Shown here: positions 1-36,696 of the stretch, in pieces | Layout: every line of letters starts with the position of its first letter | Numbering within the stretch: the first letter of the stretch is position 1 | From: a virus | Lineage: Duplodnaviria > Caudoviricetes | Virus record (IMG/VR): IMGVR_UViG_3300012953_000083 | Span: 1 to 36,696 of that record | DNA length: 36,696 nt | Direction: 5' to 3' (one strand) | Notes under the pieces: generated by a model | What the model was told of the DNA's origin: nothing | Databases searched by the model: none | Seen by the model: the letters and a program-made list of their open reading frames with translations, nothing else | Program-made: the position numbers and the translations under genes

Positions 1-72
1 AACCTTATCAGCTCAACATATAAAGAACCGGACAAACTCCCTATCAAGAAGATTCCAGATGAGGACAATTAG
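1..72 (+). CDS. Probable C-terminal end of terminase small subunit (partial)
   Basis: Frame 1 open from base 1 (NLISSTYKEPDKLPIKKIPDEDN*) to TAG at 70-72; lies upstream of terL; a TerS-like N-terminus runs off the other end of the window. Confidence 0.5.
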   Translation, partial: NLISSTYKEPDKLPIKKIPDEDN

Positions 73-278
73 AATGACAAGGCGGACGCACACGGACGCA
101 AGAAAAAAGACGATATTCGACCCCCCTAAAATTCGCAGCGAGGGGGATATATATGTAAACTATATAACTAAATTTTTTTTATTTTTTTTGAATTGGATTT
201 TCCCCCATTTAATCTTATTCAAAACGGCAGCAGTGTTTCACACTTTCTCCTCGTCTATCACTGCTGCCACCAAAAGAC

Positions 279-1811
279 ATGAAATATAAAGCAGAAGAAG
301 AAAAACAATTAATGTCTGATCTTTGGTCCTTAAACATCAAAGATAATCCTTATAATTTTGTAATGTATGCTTTCAGTTGGGGAGTAAAAGATACCCCCCT
401 TGAAAACTTTACCGGTCCTAGAAAGTGGCAAGAAAAAATTTTAAAAGATATAGCCTTACATATACAAAGAAACGAAACTATTGATTTACCTGAAATGTTT
501 AGACTTGCAGTAGCAAGTGGTAGAGGAATAGGCAAATCAGCATTAGTCTCATGGATTATTTTATGGGTGTTATCTACTAGATTAGGAGCAACTGTAATTG
601 TTACAGCAAACACTGAACAACAATTAAGGTCTAGGACTTGGGCGGAATTAGGCAAATGGGTTACTTTATCTGTTAATTCTCATTGGTGGGAAAAGACAGC
701 AACAGCAATAAGACCTGCTAAGTGGTTTGATGAAAGACTAACTAACGATCTTAAAATAGATACAGGTTACTATTATGCTCAAGCTCAACTTTGGTCTGAA
801 GAAAATCCAGATGCCTTTGCAGGAATACATAGTTCTTATGGTGTTTGTTTAATAATGGACGAGGCTTCAGGTATTCCTACGCCAATATATAGCGTTAGCG
901 AAGGGTTTTTTACTGAGCCAACAAAAGACAGGTATTGGTTTACTTTTTCTAACCCAAGAAGAAATACAGGACCTTTCTTTGACAGCTTTCATAGTAAGCG
1001 TAGTTTTTGGCAAAACGAACAAATTGACTCTCGAACGGTAGAAGGGACGGACCAAAAATTATTTCATAGTATGTTAGAGCAATACGGTGAAGAATCTACT
1101 GTAGCAAAAGTAGAAGTATTAGGAGAGTTCCCTAATTATGATGATGACACGGTTATTCCATTAGATTTATGCAGATCAGCTCAGGCAAGAGATGTTGCTG
1201 TTACTGTAAATGAGCCTTTAGTTTGGGGTGTAGATGTAGCTAGATTTGGCGGAGATAATTCAGCTTTATGTAAAAGGCAGGGTAATACTGTTCTTGAAAT
1301 TAAAACTTATAATTCTATGGATTTAATGGCTTTATGTGGAGCATTGAAAAATGAATATGACGATCAAACTACAATGACAAGACCTGCTGAAATATTGATT
1401 GATGTAATTGGGTTAGGAGCAGGTGTAGTTGATAGGCTGACAGAATTAGATATGCCGGTAAGAGGTATTAATGTAGGTGAAGCTCCGTCAAGCAAAAAAA
1501 ATTATTTAAATCTTAGAGCTGAACTTTGGTTTCAAATTAAAGACTGGCTATCAGCTAGAGATTGCAAACTACCTGCAGATGATGAATTGGTCGCAGAACT
1601 TGTATCACCAATTTATAAATACAACTCAGCAGGAAAAATAAAATTAGAAAGCAAAGAAGAAATGAAAAAAAGAGGAATTAAATCTCCTGACAAAGCTGAT
1701 GCACTTGCTTTAACTTTTGCCGGTACTTCGGCTGCATTAGGTGGCAGCTCCTCGTTTATGGGTTATAATTTCAAACGACCGTTAAAATCAAAAATACTAA
1801 GAGTAGGTTAA
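279..1811 (+). CDS. terL: Terminase large subunit
   Basis: Walker A ASGRGIGKS, Walker B CLIMDEAS, FSNP coupling motif, RNase H-like GVDVARFGGD and SPDKADALALTF. Confidence 0.97.
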   Translation: MKYKAEEEKQLMSDLWSLNIKDNPYNFVMYAFSWGVKDTPLENFTGPRKWQEKILKDIALHIQRNETIDLPEMFRLAVASGRGIGKSALVSWIILWVLSTRLGATVIVTANTEQQLRSRTWAELGKWVTLSVNSHWWEKTATAIRPAKWFDERLTNDLKIDTGYYYAQAQLWSEENPDAFAGIHSSYGVCLIMDEASGIPTPIYSVSEGFFTEPTKDRYWFTFSNPRRNTGPFFDSFHSKRSFWQNEQIDSRTVEGTDQKLFHSMLEQYGEESTVAKVEVLGEFPNYDDDTVIPLDLCRSAQARDVAVTVNEPLVWGVDVARFGGDNSALCKRQGNTVLEIKTYNSMDLMALCGALKNEYDDQTTMTRPAEILIDVIGLGAGVVDRLTELDMPVRGINVGEAPSSKKNYLNLRAELWFQIKDWLSARDCKLPADDELVAELVSPIYKYNSAGKIKLESKEEMKKRGIKSPDKADALALTFAGTSAALGGSSSFMGYNFKRPLKSKILRVG

Positions 1812-1814
1812 TTT

Positions 1815-4016
1815 ATGGAATACAAGAAAACTGATGATAGCAGTTATGATGAAGAATTATTACAAGGTGTATTAAAATCTGAATTAGATGATGCTAAAGA
1901 CTACATAGACTCAATCGGTCAAGAAAGAGCAGAATCAACACAATATTATTTAGGAGAGTCACCAACTGGCGGTAGTGATATGTCTTCTGAATATGTCTCT
2001 ACAGATGTTAGAGATAGTGTTTTATTTATGCTGCCTTCTTTAATGAGAACTTTTTTTGGAACTAAAAAAGTAGTCGAGTTTATACCTAATGACCCTCAAG
2101 ATGTTCCAGTAGCAAAACAACAATCAGATTACATTAACTATATTGTTACTCAAAAAAATAATGGGTTTAAAGTTTTATATGATGTTTTTAAAGATGCACT
2201 AATTAGAAAAACTGGTTTTGCTAAAGTGTTTTTTGACAGCTCTTTAACAACTAGCACACACAGTTACACTGATTTATCTATCATGCAATACGAAACATTA
2301 ATTGCAGATGAAAATGTTGAGGTTATGGACTCACAAGAAATCATGGGAGATTTTAGTGTTATAGATGAAGCTACTGGTGAAGAAATATCAGAGCAACAAG
2401 TTATAGGTTATGACTTAACAATTAGAAGAGTAAAAGAAAAAAATGATGTAATCATTGAATCAATACCTCCGGAAGAAGTATTAATTTCAAGAAATGCTAG
2501 ATCACTAAAAGAAGCTAGTTATGTTGCTCATAGAAGAATTGTTACGCTTTCTGATTTGGTTTCTATGGGTTACGACAAAGAAGAAATGGAAGAGTATCAG
2601 GGTAACGAAGAGTTTATTGATGCTGAGGACGAAAGACAGGCAAGAAATCCTTTTTCAGAAATGACTACACCTGATCGACCGGACGGAAAAGATATTTTAT
2701 ACATTGAACACTATATTTATTTTGACAAAGATGATGACGGTATAGCAGAGCTAATTAAAGTTTGTACTGTTGGTGGTGGTTTAGAAATAATTAATTGCGA
2801 AGCGATTGATGATTTGCCTATAGTAATGTTTTGTCCTGACCCTGAACCTCATACTGCTATAGGTTCTTGTCCTGCTGACTATTTAAAACCTATCCAAGAT
2901 GTTAAATCTCAAATTGTTAGAGACAGTTTAGATTCATTAGGTCATTCAATTTTTCCTAGAATGGGAGTTGTTGAGGGTCAAGTAAACATAGATGATGTTT
3001 TAAACAACGATATAGGGCAACCTATAAGAATGAGACAGGCAGGAGCAGTTCAGCCTTTTTCAATACCTTTCGCCGGTAAAGAAGCGTTCCCTTTTCTACA
3101 ATATTTAGATGAACAAAAAGAAAATCGCACAGGTGTTTCTAAAGCAGCCGCAGGATTAAATGCAGATGCTTTACAATCAAGCACAAAGGCGGCAGTTAGT
3201 TCTACTATGTCTGCAGCACAGGGAAGAATAGAATTAATTAGCCGCCATTTCGCTGAAGGCATGAAAGATTTATTTAGTTTAGTAAATAATCTTGTGGTTA
3301 AAAATCAAGATCAAGCTGAAATGGTTAGATTAAATAATGATTTTATTGAAGTTGACCCTAGATATTGGGACGCTGATAAAGACATGGTATGTAATGTTGG
3401 AATTAGCAAATCAAGTGATGAAGAAAAATTAAATGTTTTACAGCAAGTAGCAGCTAAACAAGAACTTATACTTCAAAGTTTAGGAGCTAATAATCCTTTA
3501 GTAACTGGTCAACAATACTCCAACACTATATCTAAAATTATAGAAATGGCAGGTTTTCCTGATGCTCAAGAGTTTATAAATACAAAAGTTCCGCCACAAC
3601 CTCCGGCTCAAGAAGACAGTAAGCCGTCTGCTGAAGAACAATTAGCAATAGCTGAAACTATGAAAGCACAAGTATCAGCAGAAAAACTAAAAGTTGATGC
3701 GGAAACTGACAGAATGAAAATTATTATGGAAGACGATTTTGATAGAGATAAGTTTGAAGTTGAAACTCGTATTAAGATGGCAGAACTTCATGCACAGTAT
3801 GGAGACTCTAGGGTTAATTTAGCTGATGTAGAAAAAATAATGGAACGAAGCAACAATGACTTTAGAACTGCACAAAAAATAGAAGCACAAGGATTGTTTA
3901 AAGAACCAACTCCTGCTCCTACCGGACAAATGCCTCAACAACAACCTCAACCTCAGCAATCTCCTATGCCACAAATGATGCAAGAGGGAGGACTAAATGA
4001 AGAGGGACTTACCTAA
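1815..4016 (+). CDS. Portal protein (P22-like podovirus type)
   Basis: 733 aa directly after terL; motifs VSTDVRDSV..LPSLMRTF, FKDALIRKTG, ENRTGVS typical of this portal family; P/Q-rich tail. Confidence 0.92.
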   Translation: MEYKKTDDSSYDEELLQGVLKSELDDAKDYIDSIGQERAESTQYYLGESPTGGSDMSSEYVSTDVRDSVLFMLPSLMRTFFGTKKVVEFIPNDPQDVPVAKQQSDYINYIVTQKNNGFKVLYDVFKDALIRKTGFAKVFFDSSLTTSTHSYTDLSIMQYETLIADENVEVMDSQEIMGDFSVIDEATGEEISEQQVIGYDLTIRRVKEKNDVIIESIPPEEVLISRNARSLKEASYVAHRRIVTLSDLVSMGYDKEEMEEYQGNEEFIDAEDERQARNPFSEMTTPDRPDGKDILYIEHYIYFDKDDDGIAELIKVCTVGGGLEIINCEAIDDLPIVMFCPDPEPHTAIGSCPADYLKPIQDVKSQIVRDSLDSLGHSIFPRMGVVEGQVNIDDVLNNDIGQPIRMRQAGAVQPFSIPFAGKEAFPFLQYLDEQKENRTGVSKAAAGLNADALQSSTKAAVSSTMSAAQGRIELISRHFAEGMKDLFSLVNNLVVKNQDQAEMVRLNNDFIEVDPRYWDADKDMVCNVGISKSSDEEKLNVLQQVAAKQELILQSLGANNPLVTGQQYSNTISKIIEMAGFPDAQEFINTKVPPQPPAQEDSKPSAEEQLAIAETMKAQVSAEKLKVDAETDRMKIIMEDDFDRDKFEVETRIKMAELHAQYGDSRVNLADVEKIMERSNNDFRTAQKIEAQGLFKEPTPAPTGQMPQQQPQPQQSPMPQMMQEGGLNEEGLT

Positions 4017-4271: not shown

Positions 4272-4534
4272 TGCCAAGTAGAGATAACAGATTAAAAAGA
4301 TTAGGTCTATCAGGCTATAATAAACCTAAGCGTACACCTAAGCACAAAACTAAATCTCATGTAGTTGTGGCTAAAGATGGAGACAAAATAAAAACTATTA
4401 GGTTTGGTCAGCAAGGAAAAACAGGTGACAAAACTATGACAAGTAGAGCCAAGTCTTTTAAAGCAAGACATGGAAAGAACATTAAGCGAGGCAAAATGTC
4501 TGCTGCTTATTGGTCCAATAAAGTAAAATGGTAA
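4271..4534 (+). CDS. Basic phage protein (87 aa) of a type common in marine phages
   Basis: Motif PKRTP.H..KSHVV.AK.GD..K.IRFGQQG..SFKARH..SAAYWS.KVKW; GGAG SD. Confidence 0.8.
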   Translation: MPSRDNRLKRLGLSGYNKPKRTPKHKTKSHVVVAKDGDKIKTIRFGQQGKTGDKTMTSRAKSFKARHGKNIKRGKMSAAYWSNKVKW

Positions 4535-24041: not shown

Positions 24042-24117
24042 TGGTGAGTCCTCAGAGGCTCGAACTCTGGACCCTACCCTTAAAAGGGGTATGCTCTACC
24101 AACTGAGCTAAGGACTC
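24042..24117 (-). tRNA. tRNA-Lys(UUU)
   Basis: 76-nt cloverleaf: GAGTCCT/AGGACTC acceptor, GCTC/GAGC D stem, TACCC-CT TTT AA-GGGTA anticodon arm, CAGAG-TTCGAGC-CTCTG T arm, encoded ACCA. Confidence 0.97.
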
Positions 24118-26328: not shown

Positions 26329-27105
26329 ATGTCTTTAGCTGATATACAAAAAGGTAGTCAAATAAAACCTGTTAAATTTATTTTATATGGACCAAGCGGC
26401 ATAGGTAAAACAAGTCTAGCTGCACAAATGGAAAACCCAGTCTTAATTCAAACTGAAGATGGCATGGCAGGTATCGAGAATGATGACAACATTTGGTCTT
26501 TCCCAGTCTGTAAAACTTATGATGAATTTATGTCTAGGCTCACGGCAATAAGAGATGAAGAACACGATAGAAAATCTTTAATAATAGATTCACTTGATTG
26601 GTTAGAAACCCTTGTCTTTCAAAAGGTTTGTGACATTGGAGGGAAGGGTCATGTTGAGGATTTTGGATATGGTAAAGGCTATGCTTTAGCAGGAGATCAG
26701 ATGACAGAAATTCTTGAAGTCTTAAATGATATAAGAGACAAAAGAAAAATGAGAGTCTGCATGATTTGTCATGTTGAATTAAAGCGTATTGAAATACCTG
26801 ACATGAACCCTCATGATAAATACCAATTAAAATTACATAAAAGAGTTGCTGCAAAAGTGAGTGAGTTTGCTGATGCAATTTTCTTTTACAATTACAAATA
26901 TGGACAAGTAAAAAAACAAGCTGACAAAGGGCAAATGGTTACAAAAACAACTATGTCACAAGACAGATATATTTTTACTAGAGAAACTTCCGCTCATGTA
27001 GGGAAGAATAGATACAACTTGCCTGACGAAATCAAGCTCGAAAGGGAGACAGGTTGGAAGATTTTAAGTACAGCTATGAAGGAGGGGTTAGGCATTGGAA
27101 AATAA
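26329..27105 (+). CDS. Sak4-like AAA_24 ATPase / recombinase
   Basis: LYGPSGIGKTS, QTEDG, IIDSLDWLE, GYGKGY, KNRYNLP. Confidence 0.9.
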   Translation: MSLADIQKGSQIKPVKFILYGPSGIGKTSLAAQMENPVLIQTEDGMAGIENDDNIWSFPVCKTYDEFMSRLTAIRDEEHDRKSLIIDSLDWLETLVFQKVCDIGGKGHVEDFGYGKGYALAGDQMTEILEVLNDIRDKRKMRVCMICHVELKRIEIPDMNPHDKYQLKLHKRVAAKVSEFADAIFFYNYKYGQVKKQADKGQMVTKTTMSQDRYIFTRETSAHVGKNRYNLPDEIKLERETGWKILSTAMKEGLGIGK

Positions 27106-31130: not shown

Positions 31131-31403
31131 CTAATTTGTACGGGGGGAGTTCTCTCTAATTTCAGACAGACTTTGTGTCTGGAATCTAGTTAAGATTTGT
31201 TTTTCTACATATCGCATAAGGGCATTAGCAACATTCATTTCTACTTGATTTAAAACCAAGTCATTATCTTTAATTGCTTTGCTATTTTTTACTAAATGAA
31301 AACCTATCTTGAGTTTAAGTTCTTCAAGATATTCCGGAAGGTTTCTCTCTTGTGCTTCATCTAATAAATCACCTATGACAAGTGCTAGTTCGTGGTTATT
31401 CAT
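31131..31403 (-). CDS. Hypothetical protein
   Basis: AAGGAG SD before ATG 31403. Confidence 0.65.
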   Translation of the reverse strand: MNNHELALVIGDLLDEAQERNLPEYLEELKLKIGFHLVKNSKAIKDNDLVLNQVEMNVANALMRYVEKQILTRFQTQSLSEIRENSPRTN

Positions 31404-31411
31404 AATCTCCT

Positions 31412-31588
31412 TCATGAGTTGATTGCCCTATGAATTACCCTCAACTCTTTTGCATAAGATTTTAAATCTTCTACTCTATCTTTAGGGACTATAACCTTAA
31501 CACTAACTAACCCTGCTTTTTGAGTGTTAATTAAATACTTATCTTGTGCTTTCTTTTTTGCTTCTTTGTTTTTAAATGGAAAAGTCAT
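31412..31588 (-). CDS. Small basic protein (58 aa), possibly ribbon-helix-helix
   Basis: Not in ORF track; TAATG-coupled; GLVSVKVIVPKDRVEDLKSYAKEL. Confidence 0.55.
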   Translation of the reverse strand: MTFPFKNKEAKKKAQDKYLINTQKAGLVSVKVIVPKDRVEDLKSYAKELRVIHRAINS

Positions 31589-32076
31589 TAGCTTTCCTCC
31601 TTTTCTTCCATGTTGCCTGTCATGTATTTTATATAAACATTTTCTTCATTCATAACTCTGTAAATTTCTTTCATATCATCAACTATCATTTTGTTTTCCT
31701 CAGCTAAATCTAATTCATCAATGTAACATTTGGTCCCGCAAGGCGTTCCATAAGGAGCAAAGTTGCTTGTAAAATCAGTGCCACCTGCCATCTCTCTAAC
31801 ATGAAGTCTCTTTGCTTTTGGTCCTAATGGACTTTCAGGTTTTTTCTCAGCTACCAACCAAATAGAATAATATGTTTCCTCTCCTTCTGCTTTGTTTTGT
31901 CGTTGTTGAGAGATATTAAAATTATGTTTGTTAGCTACTGATACAAACCTATTTTTTTCAGCAAAATTTAGATTTCTAACACAGTCATTTATTTCCATTT
32001 TCAATAGAGTTTCTAACACTTCATCTGTCTTAGTTAGCTTTCGTTCTATTCCTTTTTCTATTTTAAATTTACTCAT
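31588..32076 (-). CDS. Hypothetical protein (FKIEKGI N-terminus)
   Basis: 162-aa ORF with SD. Confidence 0.7.
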   Translation of the reverse strand: MSKFKIEKGIERKLTKTDEVLETLLKMEINDCVRNLNFAEKNRFVSVANKHNFNISQQRQNKAEGEETYYSIWLVAEKKPESPLGPKAKRLHVREMAGGTDFTSNFAPYGTPCGTKCYIDELDLAEENKMIVDDMKEIYRVMNEENVYIKYMTGNMEEKEES

Positions 32077-32209
32077 TTCCTTTCTCCTCAGTTGTTATAA
32101 ATATTTTTTTTTCGTTCTTACTTGCAAAAGTAGTTTTGCCAACACCAGTTGGACCATAAATAATTAATTTTGGTTTTTTAATTGCTCTTCCAAACATTGA
32201 TTTTTTCAT
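32069..32209 (-). CDS. 46-aa P-loop mini-protein resembling the Sak4/AAA_24 N-terminus
   Basis: MKKSMFGRAIKKPKLIIYGPTGVGKTTFASKNEKKIFITTEEKGNE; GAGG SD, ATGA-coupled. Confidence 0.7.
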   Translation of the reverse strand: MKKSMFGRAIKKPKLIIYGPTGVGKTTFASKNEKKIFITTEEKGNE

Positions 32210-32316
32210 TTCTTTTTCCTCGTTGTCTTTTTAATTTTAGTTTTTGGTTTTGGTTTCTGTTTTAAATCAGCAACTAATTTCATGTGTTCCTTCATGGTCA
32301 TAACTTTTTTTGTCAT
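32206..32316 (-). CDS. Small basic peptide (36 aa)
   Basis: ATGA overlaps at both ends. Confidence 0.5.
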   Translation of the reverse strand: MTKKVMTMKEHMKLVADLKQKPKPKTKIKKTTRKKK

Positions 32317-32801
32317 GATCTTCTTAGTGCCTCCTTCATTACAATATGTTGAAGAATATCTAACTTATCATCAAGGTCCTTGTCTTTTTCAGAGTACCCA
32401 TTTTTTACCCTGTTACTAAACATAGCAATAATTACTGTGTCCCAAGCATTTTTAATATCTTGAGAACTATAATCTCCAAGTTTTTCTTCAAAACTTTTAA
32501 CAGTTCTTTTGGTTATGTCTTTGCTTGTTTCATTAAACAGTTCTTTGTCTGTCTGAGCCTTAACTCTTTTAATAAATTTATCGAAAGCTGCTTTTGAGTC
32601 TTTGCTTTTTTCATCTTGAAAAGATGATTTGTTTCTAATTTCCAGTGCCTTAATTCTGGATAGCTCATCATTCAACTTGTCTGATTCTGCTATTAATTTA
32701 TCAAAACTTTTACTGGACATTAAATGCTGCTCCTCAGCTAACTCTCTGTCTATCGCATAAAGTCTCTGCTCAATCCATTCCTTGTCATAATTGTCATTCA
32801 C
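32313..32801 (-). CDS. Hypothetical protein
   Basis: GGAG SD before GTG start. Confidence 0.7.
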   Translation of the reverse strand: MNDNYDKEWIEQRLYAIDRELAEEQHLMSSKSFDKLIAESDKLNDELSRIKALEIRNKSSFQDEKSKDSKAAFDKFIKRVKAQTDKELFNETSKDITKRTVKSFEEKLGDYSSQDIKNAWDTVIIAMFSNRVKNGYSEKDKDLDDKLDILQHIVMKEALRRS

Positions 32802-32816
32802 AATTTTCTCCGTTAG

Positions 32817-32951
32817 TTAATCAATAATGAGATGGCTTTTTATCCATTCTTCATTAATTCCTTGCTCTTTAAGTTTCTTTCTTAAACCTTCCTCAAATTG
32901 CTTTTTGGCAAGTTTAGAATCTACTTTCTTGTTTTGTTTTCTATCTATCAT
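32817..32951 (-). CDS. Small hypothetical protein (44 aa, MIDRKQ...)
   Basis: ATGA-coupled; not in ORF track. Confidence 0.5.
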   Translation of the reverse strand: MIDRKQNKKVDSKLAKKQFEEGLRKKLKEQGINEEWIKSHLIID

Positions 32952-33109
32952 TCCTTAACCTCAACTTCATCTGTTTCACCTTCTAACTCCCAATTTAACT
33001 CTTCATTTTCAGCTATTTTTTCAGCCTCCTCTAAAGTGTAAGCATCAATAAAACAATACTCTTCACGAGAATATTCTCTAGTCGCTATAAATCTTTTTTT
33101 CTTAATCAT
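32948..33109 (-). CDS. Small acidic protein (53 aa)
   Basis: GAGGTG SD, TAATG-coupled; A.TLEEAEKIA motif. Confidence 0.6.
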   Translation of the reverse strand: MIKKKRFIATREYSREEYCFIDAYTLEEAEKIAENEELNWELEGETDEVEVKE

Positions 33110-33375
33110 TACGCCACCTCTTTAATTTGATTTAATACTTCGTAAATTGATTTTTGAACATACTTAGGAAAATCCTTAATGCCTTCATCTTCAGGATAGA
33201 TTTCAACATAGTCAAAATCTTCACCATACCAGTCTTGAATTTCAATCCTAAATGTTGGGTCGTCTTTATGTTCATAAAAATCGTGAACTACTAAGTCTGT
33301 TTGGTCTAAGTCCCAATGCCATACATCTTCACCATCTTTTGTGTTTATATAAAATTCTCTAAATCTTTCTTTCAT
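33109..33375 (-). CDS. Acidic hypothetical early protein
   Basis: GAGGTG SD, TAATG-coupled; D/E-rich. Confidence 0.7.
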   Translation of the reverse strand: MKERFREFYINTKDGEDVWHWDLDQTDLVVHDFYEHKDDPTFRIEIQDWYGEDFDYVEIYPEDEGIKDFPKYVQKSIYEVLNQIKEVA

Positions 33376-33719
33376 TACGCCACCTCTTTATTTTGTTTTA
33401 AGTCTTCCAGTTCAAAACATTTTAAAAAATCATCTAACAGCTCAACCAGTTCATCTTTGTCTGATACTGATAATTTTTTTATGTCTCCTTCATAACCAAT
33501 AAACTCTGGCACATCTTCTCTTGATACCCAGTCAAAAAATTCTCTTGAATATTTAGATGCAAAATCTTTGTCTCTAAAAAATCCTAAAGTGTTTATGTCT
33601 GTTGGATTAAAGTATGTAAACAGCTCCATTTGGTCTGTATGTTTTGCAAAAGAATACTCACAGATCATTTGAATAATTGTAAGTTCCTGCATAGAAAATA
33701 ATCTTTTTCTATCTATCAT
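33375..33719 (-). CDS. Hypothetical early protein
   Basis: AGGAG SD fits ATG 33719 rather than 33734; directly downstream of hammerhead 3. Confidence 0.7.
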   Translation of the reverse strand: MIDRKRLFSMQELTIIQMICEYSFAKHTDQMELFTYFNPTDINTLGFFRDKDFASKYSREFFDWVSREDVPEFIGYEGDIKKLSVSDKDELVELLDDFLKCFELEDLKQNKEVA

Positions 33720-33752
33720 TTTATCTCCTGCCATGTTTCAGGCGTTTAGTTT

Positions 33753-33826
33753 GTCTAAGAACCTGACTAATAATCGAAACTTAAATTAATCAGGTTTTCG
33801 GATATTGAATCCATCTTCAGTTAGAC
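33753..33826 (-). ncRNA. Type I hammerhead ribozyme HH3
   Basis: GUCUAA CUGAAGA U GGAU-UCAAU-AUCC GAAA ACCUGAUUAAU..AUUAGUCAGGU UC^UUAGAC; predicted cut 33759/33758. Confidence 0.88.
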
Positions 33827-34149
33827 TTTGCTTCCTCTCCTGCTTTGCTGTATTGATAAAAAGGTGAATACTCACTTACCCAGTAAGCGGCGGCAATTTG
33901 TTGAGCTGTATAGTCAACGCTGTAGCCGTTGAAATAAGTTTCTATAACATCAATCATTTTTGCCATATCTAAAACCAAACAATCAAACAAAGCGGACTGC
34001 TTGTCCTCCTCCGTAAAATAATCATCTTCCGGATTGAAACTATCCCATGAGGTCTTATCAAAATTATCTGCCCATAAAAGCAGGTCTTCTGGGACCCATT
34101 CTGCAATCACTTCATTGTGGTTGTGATCGTGAATATTATCTATCTTCAT
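33817..34149 (-). CDS. Acidic hypothetical early protein
   Basis: AGGAG SD; D/E-rich; its stop codon is the UGA of the HH3 core. Confidence 0.7.
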   Translation of the reverse strand: MKIDNIHDHNHNEVIAEWVPEDLLLWADNFDKTSWDSFNPEDDYFTEEDKQSALFDCLVLDMAKMIDVIETYFNGYSVDYTAQQIAAAYWVSEYSPFYQYSKAGEEAKSN

Positions 34150-34157
34150 TTTGTCTC

Positions 34158-34415
34158 CTATAGTTTGTAAAGGTCGTTACAAGAAATTAACTTAGCGTCC
34201 ATATAATTAGCAAAACTATCAGCTTCTAAATTTTGCTGATCTACAGTTTTATTTAATACTGGATAATCGTTTACACTAATTAAAGTAAGACCTTTGTAAA
34301 AAGTTTCAATCTTAGCTTTATAGTCAATACCAAATGTATCATCTGCTAAAACCAAGAAAGAACAAGTCTTTTGATCTTGATTAGTGTAAGAAAGTAATCG
34401 CATATATTTATTCAT
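34158..34415 (-). CDS. Hypothetical early protein
   Basis: GAGGAG SD; first gene after internal promoter. Confidence 0.7.
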   Translation of the reverse strand: MNKYMRLLSYTNQDQKTCSFLVLADDTFGIDYKAKIETFYKGLTLISVNDYPVLNKTVDQQNLEADSFANYMDAKLISCNDLYKL

Positions 34416-34464
34416 TTTGTCTCCTCGCTGTTGCGAATTTAGTTAATTAAAATATCTAGGACGG

Positions 34465-34494
34465 ATAGTAGCATATTTTTTTTGGGAGTTGCAA
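34465..34494 (-). promoter_or_regulatory. sigma70-like early promoter with extended -10
   Basis: TTGCAA-18nt-TACTAT with TGn extension; embedded in an imperfect inverted repeat. Confidence 0.7.
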
Positions 34495-34526
34495 CTATCC
34501 GCCTAAAATTAATTTTTATTTCTCCT

Positions 34527-34604
34527 TTATCTTCCAATCCATGCAGCAAAAATAAATGCAGCAATTATGCCTACCCAAAAATATAAAAGAAAAATAACCT
34601 CCAT
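34527..34604 (-). CDS. 25-aa membrane peptide
   Basis: MEVIFLLYFWVGIIAAFIFAAWIGR; TAATG-coupled. Confidence 0.5.
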   Translation of the reverse strand: MEVIFLLYFWVGIIAAFIFAAWIGR

Positions 34605-34786
34605 TATTTCACCCCCTTTGTTTTTTGACACGCTTGAAAAAATTTTCCTGAATCAAATTTATTATTATTTTCACCAAACACCTCGCAAAGATTTCCAATC
34701 AATTTAGTGGTGTCCAGTCCTTCATGCTCGTAACTATGAGCTTCTCTGATCGCTTGAGCGATTAAAATATAATCTTTTCTACTCAC
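34604..34786 (-). CDS. Hypothetical early protein (MSRKDY..IA...FD...F..AC)
   Basis: GGAGG SD, GTGA overlap. Confidence 0.7.
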   Translation of the reverse strand: MSRKDYILIAQAIREAHSYEHEGLDTTKLIGNLCEVFGENNNKFDSGKFFQACQKTKGVK

Positions 34787-34962
34787 GATGCCTCCATTTC
34801 AGATTTAAAAAAGAACATAATTGCTCCGCCTATTTCTCCTTCGTCAGCTCTTAGAGTTTCCTCTATTACATCTTCTGAAAGAGTTGATAAAAAAACCCAG
34901 TTTGTGTGACCGTAGTATTCCAAACATTGAGCATCTATCATTTCCATTTTATTTATAGTCAT
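34783..34962 (-). CDS. Hypothetical early protein (59 aa)
   Basis: Not in ORF track; AGGAG SD in the post-HH2 leader. Confidence 0.65.
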   Translation of the reverse strand: MTINKMEMIDAQCLEYYGHTNWVFLSTLSEDVIEETLRADEGEIGGAIMFFFKSEMEAS

Positions 34963-34996
34963 ATTTTCTCCTGCCTTTCGGCGTTTATTTGTTTAT

Positions 34997-35051
34997 GTCT
35001 ATGACGCTCCTTGCGGAGCGTTTCGGATATTAAATCCATCATCAGATAGAC
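34997..35051 (-). ncRNA. Type I hammerhead ribozyme HH2
   Basis: GUCUAU CUGAUGA U GGAU-UUAAU-AUCC GAAA CGCUCC-GCAA-GGAGCG UC^AUAGAC; predicted cut 35003/35002. Confidence 0.92.
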
Positions 35052-35057
35052 TGATAT

Positions 35058-35960
35058 TTATGCGGCGTTTTTCTTCTCCTCTTTCGCTTGTAGTGATCTT
35101 AAAAAATTGACTGACTTCTGTGCCTTGCTAAACGCTGTTTTAAGAGCGTTTTTGTCTTCCTTGATAACCTTTATCCAGTTATTCAAATATTTGGCGTGAT
35201 CGTCTCTTATGACCTTCTCAATGTTTAATATTTGAGATAAGAAGGCGGAGCCAATTTCAGCTATCAATTCTTCTCTGGCATACCTCTCAGAACCAAACCC
35301 ACCGGAGAGGTCTCTGTCTTCCCTGCTAGGGTGTCCGGTCCAGTGTGTCAGCTCATGCAACAGCGTTGAGTAATATGCGGTGTCAGTGAAAAAGCTATCT
35401 ATTGACGGCATAGTGATCTGATCTGCTGAAGGTCTATAAAAAGCAGCATCTCCGCCAATATGAATTTTTGCCTGTGTATTAGCAATAAATTTCTCAGCGT
35501 TTTTGATAGTCAACTTTTTAAGCTCCGGAGTCATAACCTTTTTAGCTTCTGGTACTTCGTAACCTTCAATTTGCTCAGCATTAAAAACCGTTGAGGTTTT
35601 CTCGAACCAAACAATCGGAGTCCCTCCTCTTGCTTTCAATTCTTCTTGAGCGTCTGTCAAGTTTCTAGTCTTTTCCAGTTGGCTGAAAAATGTGACCGTT
35701 CTACCTTTTGAACCTTTAATAATTTTGTGACCTTTGTCACTCCATTGTTTAAAAGTTCCCCATTCATTTGAGCTGAAACCTGACATTGACAACCAAAATT
35801 GATTCATGCCTTGATATTCCTTCTTAGAAGAAATATTTTTTTGCGGTCCTGCTGTAATCCATTGTTTGGTCCAGTCAGCTCCGGCGGTTTCCATTAACTC
35901 AATGATCTTGTTTTGCATCTCCGCAAAATGTTGATCTTTTTTGTTTACTTTCTTAGTCAT
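35058..35960 (-). CDS. ardC: ArdC-like antirestriction protein (ssDNA-binding N-domain plus zincin-like domain)
   Basis: YQGMN..L, WGTFKQW...G..I.KG.KG, VFNAEQ, AFYRPSAD.I.MP, HELTHWTGH, YAREELIAE. Confidence 0.92.
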   Translation of the reverse strand: MTKKVNKKDQHFAEMQNKIIELMETAGADWTKQWITAGPQKNISSKKEYQGMNQFWLSMSGFSSNEWGTFKQWSDKGHKIIKGSKGRTVTFFSQLEKTRNLTDAQEELKARGGTPIVWFEKTSTVFNAEQIEGYEVPEAKKVMTPELKKLTIKNAEKFIANTQAKIHIGGDAAFYRPSADQITMPSIDSFFTDTAYYSTLLHELTHWTGHPSREDRDLSGGFGSERYAREELIAEIGSAFLSQILNIEKVIRDDHAKYLNNWIKVIKEDKNALKTAFSKAQKSVNFLRSLQAKEEKKNAA

Positions 35961-35990
35961 TTTTTCTCCTGCGTTTAAGCGTTTATTAAT

Positions 35991-36040
35991 GTCTATGACG
36001 CCTCTCGGCGTTTCGCTGATTTACAGCTCTTCAGATAGAC
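35991..36040 (-). ncRNA. Type I hammerhead ribozyme HH1
   Basis: GUCUAU CUGAAGA GCUG-UAAAU-CAGC GAAA CGCC-GAGA-GGCG UC^AUAGAC; canonical core; predicted cut 35997/35996. Confidence 0.95.
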
Positions 36041-36345
36041 TAGAATTGCTGTATTACATATCCTCCGCAATCAGTTTCTAAAACTGTGGTCACATCTTTT
36101 ATGCTCTCCAATGTTGAATAAATTGTGCTTGTTCCATTGATTGAATAATCAGCAATCAATTCATCAACATTTTTATATTCCGCATAATCACAACAAATGG
36201 CAATCACATCTAATTCTAAATTTTCCAATTCAGACAAATGCTCGTACAAAGCTTTCAACCCTTCTCTTGAAAAGTTGTTGGCATATTGTCCTGAGTTTCC
36301 AAATTCATTAATGAATTGATTTTCGTTTAAAGTTTTATAAATCAT
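36040..36345 (-). CDS. First early gene; acidic hypothetical protein
   Basis: FSREGLKALY..L..LELDVIAICCDYAEY; AGGAG SD. Confidence 0.75.
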   Translation of the reverse strand: MIYKTLNENQFINEFGNSGQYANNFSREGLKALYEHLSELENLELDVIAICCDYAEYKNVDELIADYSINGTSTIYSTLESIKDVTTVLETDCGGYVIQQF

Positions 36346-36396
36346 TTTTTTTCTCCTGCCGTTTGGCGTTTGTTAATGTCTATATGTGCATTTAAT

Positions 36397-36415
36397 ATTA
36401 TCTGTCCTAGATAAT
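36397..36415. promoter_or_regulatory. Palindromic operator-like site in the putative early promoter
   Basis: ATTATCT-GTCCT-AGATAAT; 16/19 match to the reverse complement of 34451-34469; minus-strand TTGATT overlaps its edge. Confidence 0.55.
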
Positions 36416-36544
36416 CAACCCCTATAATGAAAATAATTTTTATCAAAATGCTATTAAATGCCGGAAAACTATATATAATGGGGGTTACAGCCTGAAAAAA
36501 AAGTTTAAAATAAATTTCAATTAGTGACATAAAAGCAACTATTA

Positions 36545-36696
36545 ATGACTGAAAAAGATAAAAAAGAACCTAAAAAAGCAGGTAGAAAAGCAATAAATAT
36601 TGATCTTGATGAGGTCCGGAGACTTGCCGGACTGGGACTGTCAGAACGCCAAATCGCTGTTCAACTGGGCGTTTCATGGTCAACGCTTCACAGAAA
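36545..36696 (+). CDS. terS: Terminase small subunit, N-terminal HTH (partial)
   Basis: MTEKDKKEPKKAGRKAINIDLDEVRRLAGLGLSERQIAVQLGVSWSTLHR; runs off the end; would precede terL on a circular map. Confidence 0.75.
   Translation, partial: MTEKDKKEPKKAGRKAINIDLDEVRRLAGLGLSERQIAVQLGVSWSTLHR

Follow-up and report, generated by a model that had tools for sequence, protein, structure and literature searches.

Hammerhead ribozymes of prophages that occur in multiples often flank individual genes or short gene blocks, and a processing of long phage transcripts into gene-length mRNAs has been proposed for such clusters (Perreault 2011, PMC3088659). In the available parts of that paper, three clustered arrays cleaved in vitro and one of them also in E. 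coli, with all copies of an array cleaving within the native polycistronic RNA, and a triple array of Agrobacterium was found to flank the anti-restriction gene ardA. The role of self-cleaving ribozymes in phages and bacteria has been open since 2011, and the purpose of such hammerheads was still given as undefined in the accessible text of a 2019 review (PMC6765202). In this study, three hammerheads were analyzed in a metagenomic phage genome of the Caudoviricetes, the IMG/VR virus record IMGVR_UViG_3300012953_000083, the whole of which (36,696 bp) is referred to as the window; unless marked (+), all elements discussed are located on its minus strand. The hammerheads are situated at the junctions of an accessory operon, where they would probably self-cleave its polycistronic transcript and may uncouple the gene blocks from one another in a manner resembling the synthetic insulator RiboJ.

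The window does not add a new kind of element; the array layout has been known in prophages since 2011, as far as the available text of PMC3088659 extends. As in the arrays described there, several hammerheads of the same strand occur at gene junctions of a polycistronic phage region, the same role is proposed for them, and an anti-restriction gene is bracketed (ardA in the Agrobacterium triple array, an ArdC-like gene here), a parallel that is worth noting but that constitutes no rule. In contrast to those arrays, the ArdC-like gene is unrelated to ArdA, and the copies of the window are all of type I. They are part of a subfamily from metagenomic phages whose stem I is almost constant (6 bp, GUCUAA-like) and flanked by A's, whose stem II has 4 bp, and whose loop is U-N-N-N-U. 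PMC3088659 was the only literature found to join self-cleaving phage hammerheads with anti-restriction, and no string match to this subfamily was found in its supplements, which were covered in part.

The three copies, HH1 (36040-35991), HH2 (35051-34997), and HH3 (33826-33753), lie within 2.3 kb. Each site includes, in this order, a 6-bp stem I, the core strand CUGANGA, a 4-bp stem II with a five-base loop, GAAA, stem III, U-C, and the return strand of stem I. The sequence of HH1 is GUCUAU CUGAAGA GCUG-UAAAU-CAGC GAAA CGCC-GAGA-GGCG UC AUAGAC, that of HH2 is GUCUAU CUGAUGA U GGAU-UUAAU-AUCC GAAA CGCUCC-GCAA-GGAGCG UC AUAGAC, and that of HH3 is GUCUAA CUGAAGA U GGAU-UCAAU-AUCC GAAA ACCUGAUUAAU...AUUAGUCAGGU UC UUAGAC. 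Stems I/II/III comprise 6/4/5, 6/4/7, and 6/4/12 bp, respectively, and cleavage is predicted at C35997/A35996, C35003/A35002, and C33759/U33758. The core strand C3-U4-G5-A6-N7-G8-A9 is complete in every copy (CUGAAGA in HH1 and HH3, CUGAUGA in HH2), G12-A13-A14 is present in all three as part of GAAA, U16.1 pairs with A15.1, and position 17 is C throughout, giving the cleavage triplets GUC, GUC, and UUC. Stem I is open and stems II and III are closed by loops in all three, as in the type I topology. The three sites are complete, real type I hammerhead motifs.

A preliminary description of this DNA had placed three type I hammerheads on the minus strand at these positions, each in a gene junction, and the sequence, a structural descriptor, and a covariance model all agree with it. 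The minus-strand sequence likewise bears out the cores and triplets that it listed, as well as the exchange of stem II between copies (GCUG/CAGC versus GGAU/AUCC), the U-A to A-U swap in stem I, and the UNAAU loops. A feature missing from that description is an extra U between A9 and G10.1 in HH2 and HH3; only in HH1 does stem II directly adjoin A9 (G10.1-C11.1).

All three copies are located around stop and start codons. HH1 opens with the final base of the ORF 36345-36040 stop codon, and its end lies 30 nt before the ATG of the ArdC-like gene (35960). HH2 begins 6 nt past the ArdC stop, and 34 nt separate its end from the ATG at 34962. The first 10 nt of HH3 are shared with the end of ORF 34149-33817, and the stop codon of that ORF is therefore the UGA of the ribozyme core; HH3 ends 33 nt before a Shine-Dalgarno-linked ATG at 33719. 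Within the array, HH1 and HH2 enclose the ArdC-like gene, and HH2 and HH3 enclose a block with four to five small ORFs.

The window was scanned with a type I descriptor of our own, using strict thresholds (stems of at least 6/4/5) as well as a loose set. The matches were HH1, HH2, HH3, and one weak match at 34851-34764 (stems 4/3/4). Among 300 dinucleotide shuffles of the window, none had any match to the strict descriptor, and the loose descriptor gave a mean of 0.027 matches per shuffle. The weak match was rejected as a fourth copy and attributed to chance, as it is inside a coding sequence, has minimal stems, and drew no response from the covariance model at E<=10. The input to this model, R1, consisted of 90 hammerheads taken from other phage contigs in IMG/VR, and the closest relatives of the window were excluded. 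With filters off, it scored HH1 at 55.0, HH2 at 55.9, and HH3 at 53.5 bits (E about 1e-15 to 1e-16), and the next-best among the 13 matches listed for the window was at 10.2 bits.

A broader family of such hammerheads was found in other phages. A pattern composed of the window's stem I letters and two core strings, which requires no pairing of stems II or III, occurred in 93 stretches of IMG/VR, several of which have four copies within about 1.4 kb. Of 73 distinct pattern matches, 63 combine a stem II of 4 bp or more with a stem III of 5 bp or more, compared with 25 of 14,600 with shuffled interiors. Over all family loci, the descriptor identified 151 instances with 101 distinct sequences. An alignment was made of 90 of the 95 distinct sequences of 80 nt or less, where the five from the window's closest relatives were left out, as were one doubtful coding match (L014) and the longer sequences. 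Double-sided changes were observed at 14 of 16 pairs in these 90 members; the percentage of paired positions is no evidence by itself, because the rows were chosen by a pairing descriptor. The U's at both ends of loop II are nearly invariant in the family, and an A is found at position -1 of stem I in 94% and at position +1 in 92% of 99 distinct members. The window copies conform to the former and have both of the latter, and these U's and A's may be regarded as indirect signs of a tertiary contact between stem I and loop II, on which fast cleavage depends.

The operon belongs to a minus-strand block extending from ~36400 to 31131, which consists of small ORFs of unassigned family and the ArdC-like anti-restriction gene. 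At its head, a promoter-like site (36390-36418) was read by eye as TTGATT, a 17-nt spacer, and TTAAAT, with the palindrome TTATCTAGGACAGATAA (36414-36398) in the spacer, and it is conserved in the relative G001. The predicted transcription start, A36383, is the seventh base after TTAAAT and the A of AUAGAC. Leader A (36346-36383) follows directly after the promoter and precedes ORF101 with no ribozyme body ahead of it; it consists of AUAGAC, an A-rich stretch, GCC..GGC, and AGGAG. ORF101 (36040-36345), the sole gene in the first predicted unit of 387 nt, has no Pfam or PHROG family, and all 28 of its candidate homologues, partly from marine surveys, were at E<=0.001 with identities down to 40%. 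A near-copy of leader A, leader B (35961-35996), forms the 5' end of the HH1 3' product, ahead of the ArdC-like gene (35058-35960), a gene of 300 aa that is flanked by HH1 and HH2 and matches PF08401 (1.9e-21), PF18818 (3.7e-47), and phrog_7245 (2.5e-70). The leader after HH2 (34963-35002) reads AUAGAC...AAACGCC-GAAA-GGCAGGAG...AUG and is followed by the HH2-HH3 gene block (33817-34962), whose ORFs of 59, 60, (41), 85, and 110 aa have no assigned function. The leader after HH3 (33720-33758) reads UUAGAC AAACUAAACGCC-UGAAACAU-GGCAGGAG AUAAA, then the AUG at 33719, and the remainder of the operon past HH3 (31131-33719) includes about ten small ORFs and no further hammerhead. All four leaders, of about 38 nt, start with (A/U)UAGAC and have AAACGCC..GGCAGGAG in common. 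The 'early' character of the operon is inferred from the ArdC-like gene, the small ORFs without known function, and the operator-like palindrome in the promoter.

In the mechanism proposed here, the operon would be transcribed from this repressor-type promoter with its start at A36383, and each ribozyme would fold past the stop codon of the upstream ORF and cut after C17, between 35997 and 35996, 35003 and 35002, and 33759 and 33758. The upstream piece would retain the stop codon and end in the ribozyme body (stems II and III) with a 2',3'-cyclic phosphate. The downstream piece would retain six ribozyme bases, 5'-HO-(A/U)UAGAC, followed by the conserved leader of 30-34 nt, in which the A-rich stretch, a small GCC..GGC hairpin, AGGAG, and AUG succeed one another. 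The promoter-proximal transcript would start with the same AUAGAC leader. Irrespective of the upstream sequence, a single standard 5' untranslated region (UTR) would therefore be shared by all four predicted units, which measure 387, 994, and 1244 nt and about 2.6 kb. It is likely that the ribozymes regenerate this standard leader, in the manner of RiboJ. The purpose would be to make neither the stability nor the translation of a gene block dependent on the neighboring blocks, such that variable cassettes of accessory genes could be gained or lost without disturbing the next gene. The 5'-OH ends may resist decay, as the preliminary description had proposed.

Self-processing into gene-length units had already been put forward in the preliminary description, which was right on the motifs, strand, junctions, and covariation; the hypothesis itself was published earlier for prophage arrays, as the available text of PMC3088659 states. 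The cut-to-cut distances of 994 and 1244 nt that it gave are correct, and its first unit of ~390 nt fits the start at A36383, 387 nt upstream of the HH1 cut, where the start is a prediction.

RiboJ, a functional analog, combines a hammerhead with a hairpin for normalizing 5' UTRs, and uncleaved mRNA was modeled as decaying faster in the accessible part of the RiboJ work (PMC7536230). As in RiboJ, a hammerhead precedes the ribosome site in the window, the mRNA would be given a constant 5' end, and a hairpin lies between the cut and the ribosome site. In contrast to RiboJ, the element of the window is natural and of type I, its ribozyme body would stay on the upstream fragment, and its hairpin has about 3 bp. 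The sTRSV hammerhead has the type III layout. The comparison is one of function and implies no common descent. A further parallel is the early mRNA of phage T7, in which the host RNase III cuts double-stranded stems and leaves 5'-phosphate and 3'-OH ends. Both cases concern a polycistronic early phage transcript that is cut at intergenic structures into gene-length mRNAs, but a host protein enzyme acts in T7, whereas the RNA of the window would cut itself and leave a 5'-OH and a cyclic phosphate.

Four related records were compared, for which circular joins in the maps are assumptions. Hammerheads recur in the relatives: G002, about 83% identical, includes five in 3.2 kb, among them orthologues of HH1, HH2, and HH3, and G001, 92-96% identical, includes at least three, on a contig that lacks about 310 nt inside ArdC. 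The copy number differs between the related genomes (3, at least 3, and 5). Between HH1 and its G002 orthologue, three compensatory pairs were observed in stem II, and N7 and loop letters differ as well. HH2 is identical in the three genomes except for the inserted base (U, none, and A). In this lineage, each hammerhead precedes a conserved leader composed of (A/U)UAGAC, a stretch rich in A, AAACGCC-loop-GGC, and AGGAG, with the AUG 36-40 nt from the cut. Two of the G002 copies (L039) are variants: the one at 3709-3775 has a longer, bulged stem II and an R1 score of 24.4 bits, and the one at 4283-4353 has a U-U pair at 10.1-11.1 and an A at position 17 (40.9 bits). Hammerhead copies within one operon may differ in speed.

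G001 and the window provide a natural comparison, as these two phages, about 92-96% identical here, differ by one gene-plus-hammerhead unit upstream of the same ArdC-like gene. G001 lacks both ORF101 and HH1, and its promoter is immediately followed by the AUAGAC leader and then by ArdC. The same ArdC leader is predicted to be made by the promoter in G001 and by the ribozyme in the window. The point at which the two sequences switch falls inside the shared ATAGACATTAA, exactly between two leader repeats. Cassette behavior is also seen in the gene family F19, which has a hammerhead on either side in G001 as well as in G002, although its position in the operon is not the same in the two. Taken together, these arrangements suggest a gene, a hammerhead, and a leader as the moving unit. 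We tentatively extend the proposed self-processing to the idea that hammerhead and leader might serve as natural plug-in insulators, in which cleavage would restore the 5' end given by the promoter (AUAGAC...) and the leaders would double as recombination joints. If this were true, the downstream anti-restriction mRNA would be unchanged by an inserted cassette of gene and hammerhead, and the long-unexplained phage hammerheads would gain a concrete, testable purpose.

The same comparisons bear on a different account, according to which the hammerhead and leader units act mainly as DNA, as dispersed repeats of about 90-130 bp that mediate recombination and the shuffling of accessory cassettes, with self-cleavage either a side property or in the service of cassette spread. 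Within a single genome, the copies of ribozyme plus leader share about 72-80% identity across about 110-130 nt; the insertion or deletion between G001 and the window lies precisely between two leader repeats; F19 and its flanking hammerheads occupy different places in G001 and G002; the synteny of G001 with the window is lost just after the leader of HH3 and regained just after the fourth hammerhead of G001; and the genes beside hammerheads vary (113 downstream ORFs scanned). Repeats kept for recombination only, however, would need neither all of the catalytic letters nor the compensatory changes in stems II and III, and as the principal explanation this account appears doubtful. It is compatible with self-processing of the transcript and does not exclude it.

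A joining of the released RNAs was considered as well, in which pairs of hammerheads would excise RNAs that become circular or spliced, such as a 994-nt ArdC circle. The stem I strands of HH1 and HH2 are identical, which would allow the 5' end produced by HH1 to pair with the HH2 body, and in the type I topology the excised piece would carry the catalytic body at its 3' end. The stem I strands of other pairs that flank genes do not match, namely those of HH2 and HH3 and those of HH3 and HH4 around F19 in G001; no ligase gene was noticed among 29 ORFs in general family scans; and circular or spliced products of clustered prophage hammerheads were sought and not detected, according to the available text of PMC3088659. 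Such joining is accordingly judged highly improbable.

Several observations weigh against self-processing as the role of the array, the first of which concern recognition by Rfam. A scan of the whole window with Rfam reported no hammerhead at gathering score, and a scan of 33000-36696 reported none at E<=10. With RF00163 (Hammerhead_1) alone, the Infernal search that the preliminary description had proposed aligned HH1 to the full 45 positions of the model with a score of 27.1 bits (E 2.9e-6 in this genome), which is below the gathering threshold of 34 bits, and left HH2 and HH3 unreported; this threshold is a score set by curators and represents no biochemical feature. The copies of the window share the core, helices, and topology of RF00163 and differ from it in these scores and, in two cases, in the U inserted after A9. 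RF02276 (type II) gave only a chance-level match of 14.6 bits overlapping HH2, which was rejected. In three records, RF00163 returned 20 matches at E<=1, and some sister sequences exceed its cut-off with 36-37 bits; the phage subfamily is therefore a branch of the catalogued RF00163 family. The motifs of the window could in principle be inactive look-alikes or decayed relics, with which the low Rfam scores and the extra U in two copies would agree, as would the 4 of 18 consensus hammerheads that did not cleave when tested, as reported in the available portion of Perreault 2011 (PMC3088659). This is very unlikely in light of the intact core letters in all three copies, the compensatory changes between orthologues, and the strong covariation of the family. 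Moreover, an extra base at the same site is tolerated by the (+) hammerhead of the viroid CChMVd, where a U at that position raised the trans-cleavage rate 3-4 fold, according to the available text of PMC3705267. The viroid hammerhead is similar to HH2 and HH3 in having one extra nucleotide at the same core position, but it is a type III hammerhead with an extra A, whereas the copies here are of type I, from a phage, with an extra U. Among 101 distinct family members, four have an extra base between A9 and G10.1, and the HH2 orthologues carry U, A, or nothing at this position.

The predicted folding of HH2 is a second difficulty. HH1 and HH3 have the hammerhead as their minimum-energy fold, with or without flanks, but for HH2 a competing hairpin that uses the inserted U reaches -19.2 kcal/mol. 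The hammerhead fold of HH2 is at -18.8 kcal/mol and accounts for about 10% of the ensemble. When the flanks are included, the prediction is a hairpin over the HH2 core (AUCAG/CUGAU), which is present in all three relatives. These folds would suit a conditional cleavage, in which the ribozymes are switches set by upstream translation, alternative folds, or ions and tune the level or timing of ArdC. Regulated cleavage of phage hammerheads was also raised as a possibility in the accessible parts of Perreault 2011 (PMC3088659); additionally, the first 10 nt of HH3 are translated up to a stop that is the UGA of the core, and among the IMG/VR loci L001-L092, 103 of the 144 called cases have the stop of the upstream ORF within the ribozyme, a count that comes from a crude ORF caller and includes some loci overlapping the same contig. 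Nevertheless, no element that could act as a sensor or bind a ligand can be seen, the folds of HH1 and HH3 are clean, and energy models ignore tertiary contacts. Cleavage of this conditional kind is considered unlikely.

The remaining counterpoints concern the promoters, leaders, and joints. The head promoter is a weak match to the consensus and was not listed by a consensus scan, because TTAAAT lacks the required A at position 2 of the second hexamer. The leader hairpin has 3 bp only, and its support is one double change from C-G to U-A, found in two leaders at corresponding positions. The promoter-proximal leader of G002 lacks the AUAGAC start. Phage mosaic joints fall at gene borders anyway, and the coincidence of joints with ribozymes is weak evidence. 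Finally, a second promoter-like site in the HH2-HH3 gene block could supply 5' ends without ribozymes. This site (34440-34520, motif 34452-34468) forms a 9-bp hairpin (GGCGGAUAG...CUAUCCGUC). The loop and 3' arm of the hairpin give TTGCAA, 18 nt, and TACTAT, and a copy of the head-promoter palindrome follows that agrees at 14 of 17 positions. The site is conserved in two relatives, G001 (94%) and G002 (85%), and resembles an internal promoter and operator ahead of ORF 34415-34158. Since it is located inside the 1244-nt unit, the transcript map is perhaps less simple than outlined above.

The hairpin of this internal site was also examined as a decayed hammerhead, as it is followed by CUAGAU, but it has no core and its A15.1-U16.1 register fails. 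The same hairpin accounts for a weak Rfam match to ceN93 (25.6 bits, cut-off 60). At the head of the operon, an ORF of 62 aa was listed at 36342-36530, which covers the promoter, the operator, and leader A; it is probably no gene, because it matches intergenic DNA of G001.

In the wider family, other stem I sequences are used by neighboring members (GCCUAA/UUAGGC, GUCUGA/UCAGAC, and GCAAGU/AUUUGC). A constant partner gene was rejected, as the 113 ORFs scanned downstream of family members varied: two were ArdC-like, most had no Pfam family, and the others included DNA polymerase A (several, in one lineage), SLT, and further families. The family pattern was found in only six stretches among 185,579 species genomes, all of them in metagenome bins. 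A much larger array than that of the window was observed in the record behind L024, a 39.8-kb phage contig (G008) with 14 RF00163 matches at E<=1e-4 (17 at E<=1) on one strand, from about 10.9 to 35.3 kb.

The 103 stop codons located inside ribozymes included 50 that are the UAA of stem I GUCUAA, 24 that are the UGA of the core, and 21 in loop II. Among the 33 members that were not chosen by the pattern, 23 have a stop codon at stem I positions 4-6. In other lineages, the six bases kept on the 3' product are followed, after 4-6 nt, by their complement, as in UUAGAC-aaucaa-GUCUAA, so that refolding of the RNA after cleavage could yield a hairpin flush with the new 5' end. Such a flush hairpin was absent from all four leaders of the window. 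It occurred in 19 of 102 distinct products, versus 2.2 expected from shuffled leaders, and was distributed over the loci L001, L002, L003, L011, L012, L015, L032, L044, L047, L053, L056, L077, and L083. In one case, AUUUGC-aaag-GCAAAU, both sides of the hairpin are changed.

The record is classed as linear, with a CheckV estimate of 100%. Its phage context is evident from the portal, terminase, and integrase genes: the plus strand encodes a large terminase, an SU10-type portal, a scaffold, and an internal virion protein, as well as a replication block composed of an exonuclease, a Sak4-like ATPase, and a primase-helicase. The integrase adjoins a tRNA gene (24045-24117), which lies between the integrase and a DUF3310 gene and is, at 68.1 bits, the sole Rfam match at gathering score in the window. 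A blastn search of 33000-36696 against a collection of cultured and uncultured phages returned no match, and the closest portals in that collection are less than 45% identical.

Two further ORFs outside the array were noted. An ORF with weak helix-turn-helix matches at 36545-36694 (+) runs off the right end of the record, and at the left end an open frame in a matching phase, 2-289 (+), comes in immediately upstream of the large terminase; the two are probably one small-terminase-like gene split by the record ends. Because of this match in phase, the record is probably circularly permuted and complete. In the operon remainder, an ORF of 46 aa (32069-32209) aligns with no more than positions 1-32 of the profile AAA_24 (Sak4-like ATPase; E 6e-8), the full-length AAA_24 gene being located at 26329-27105 (+), and this ORF may be a gene fragment.

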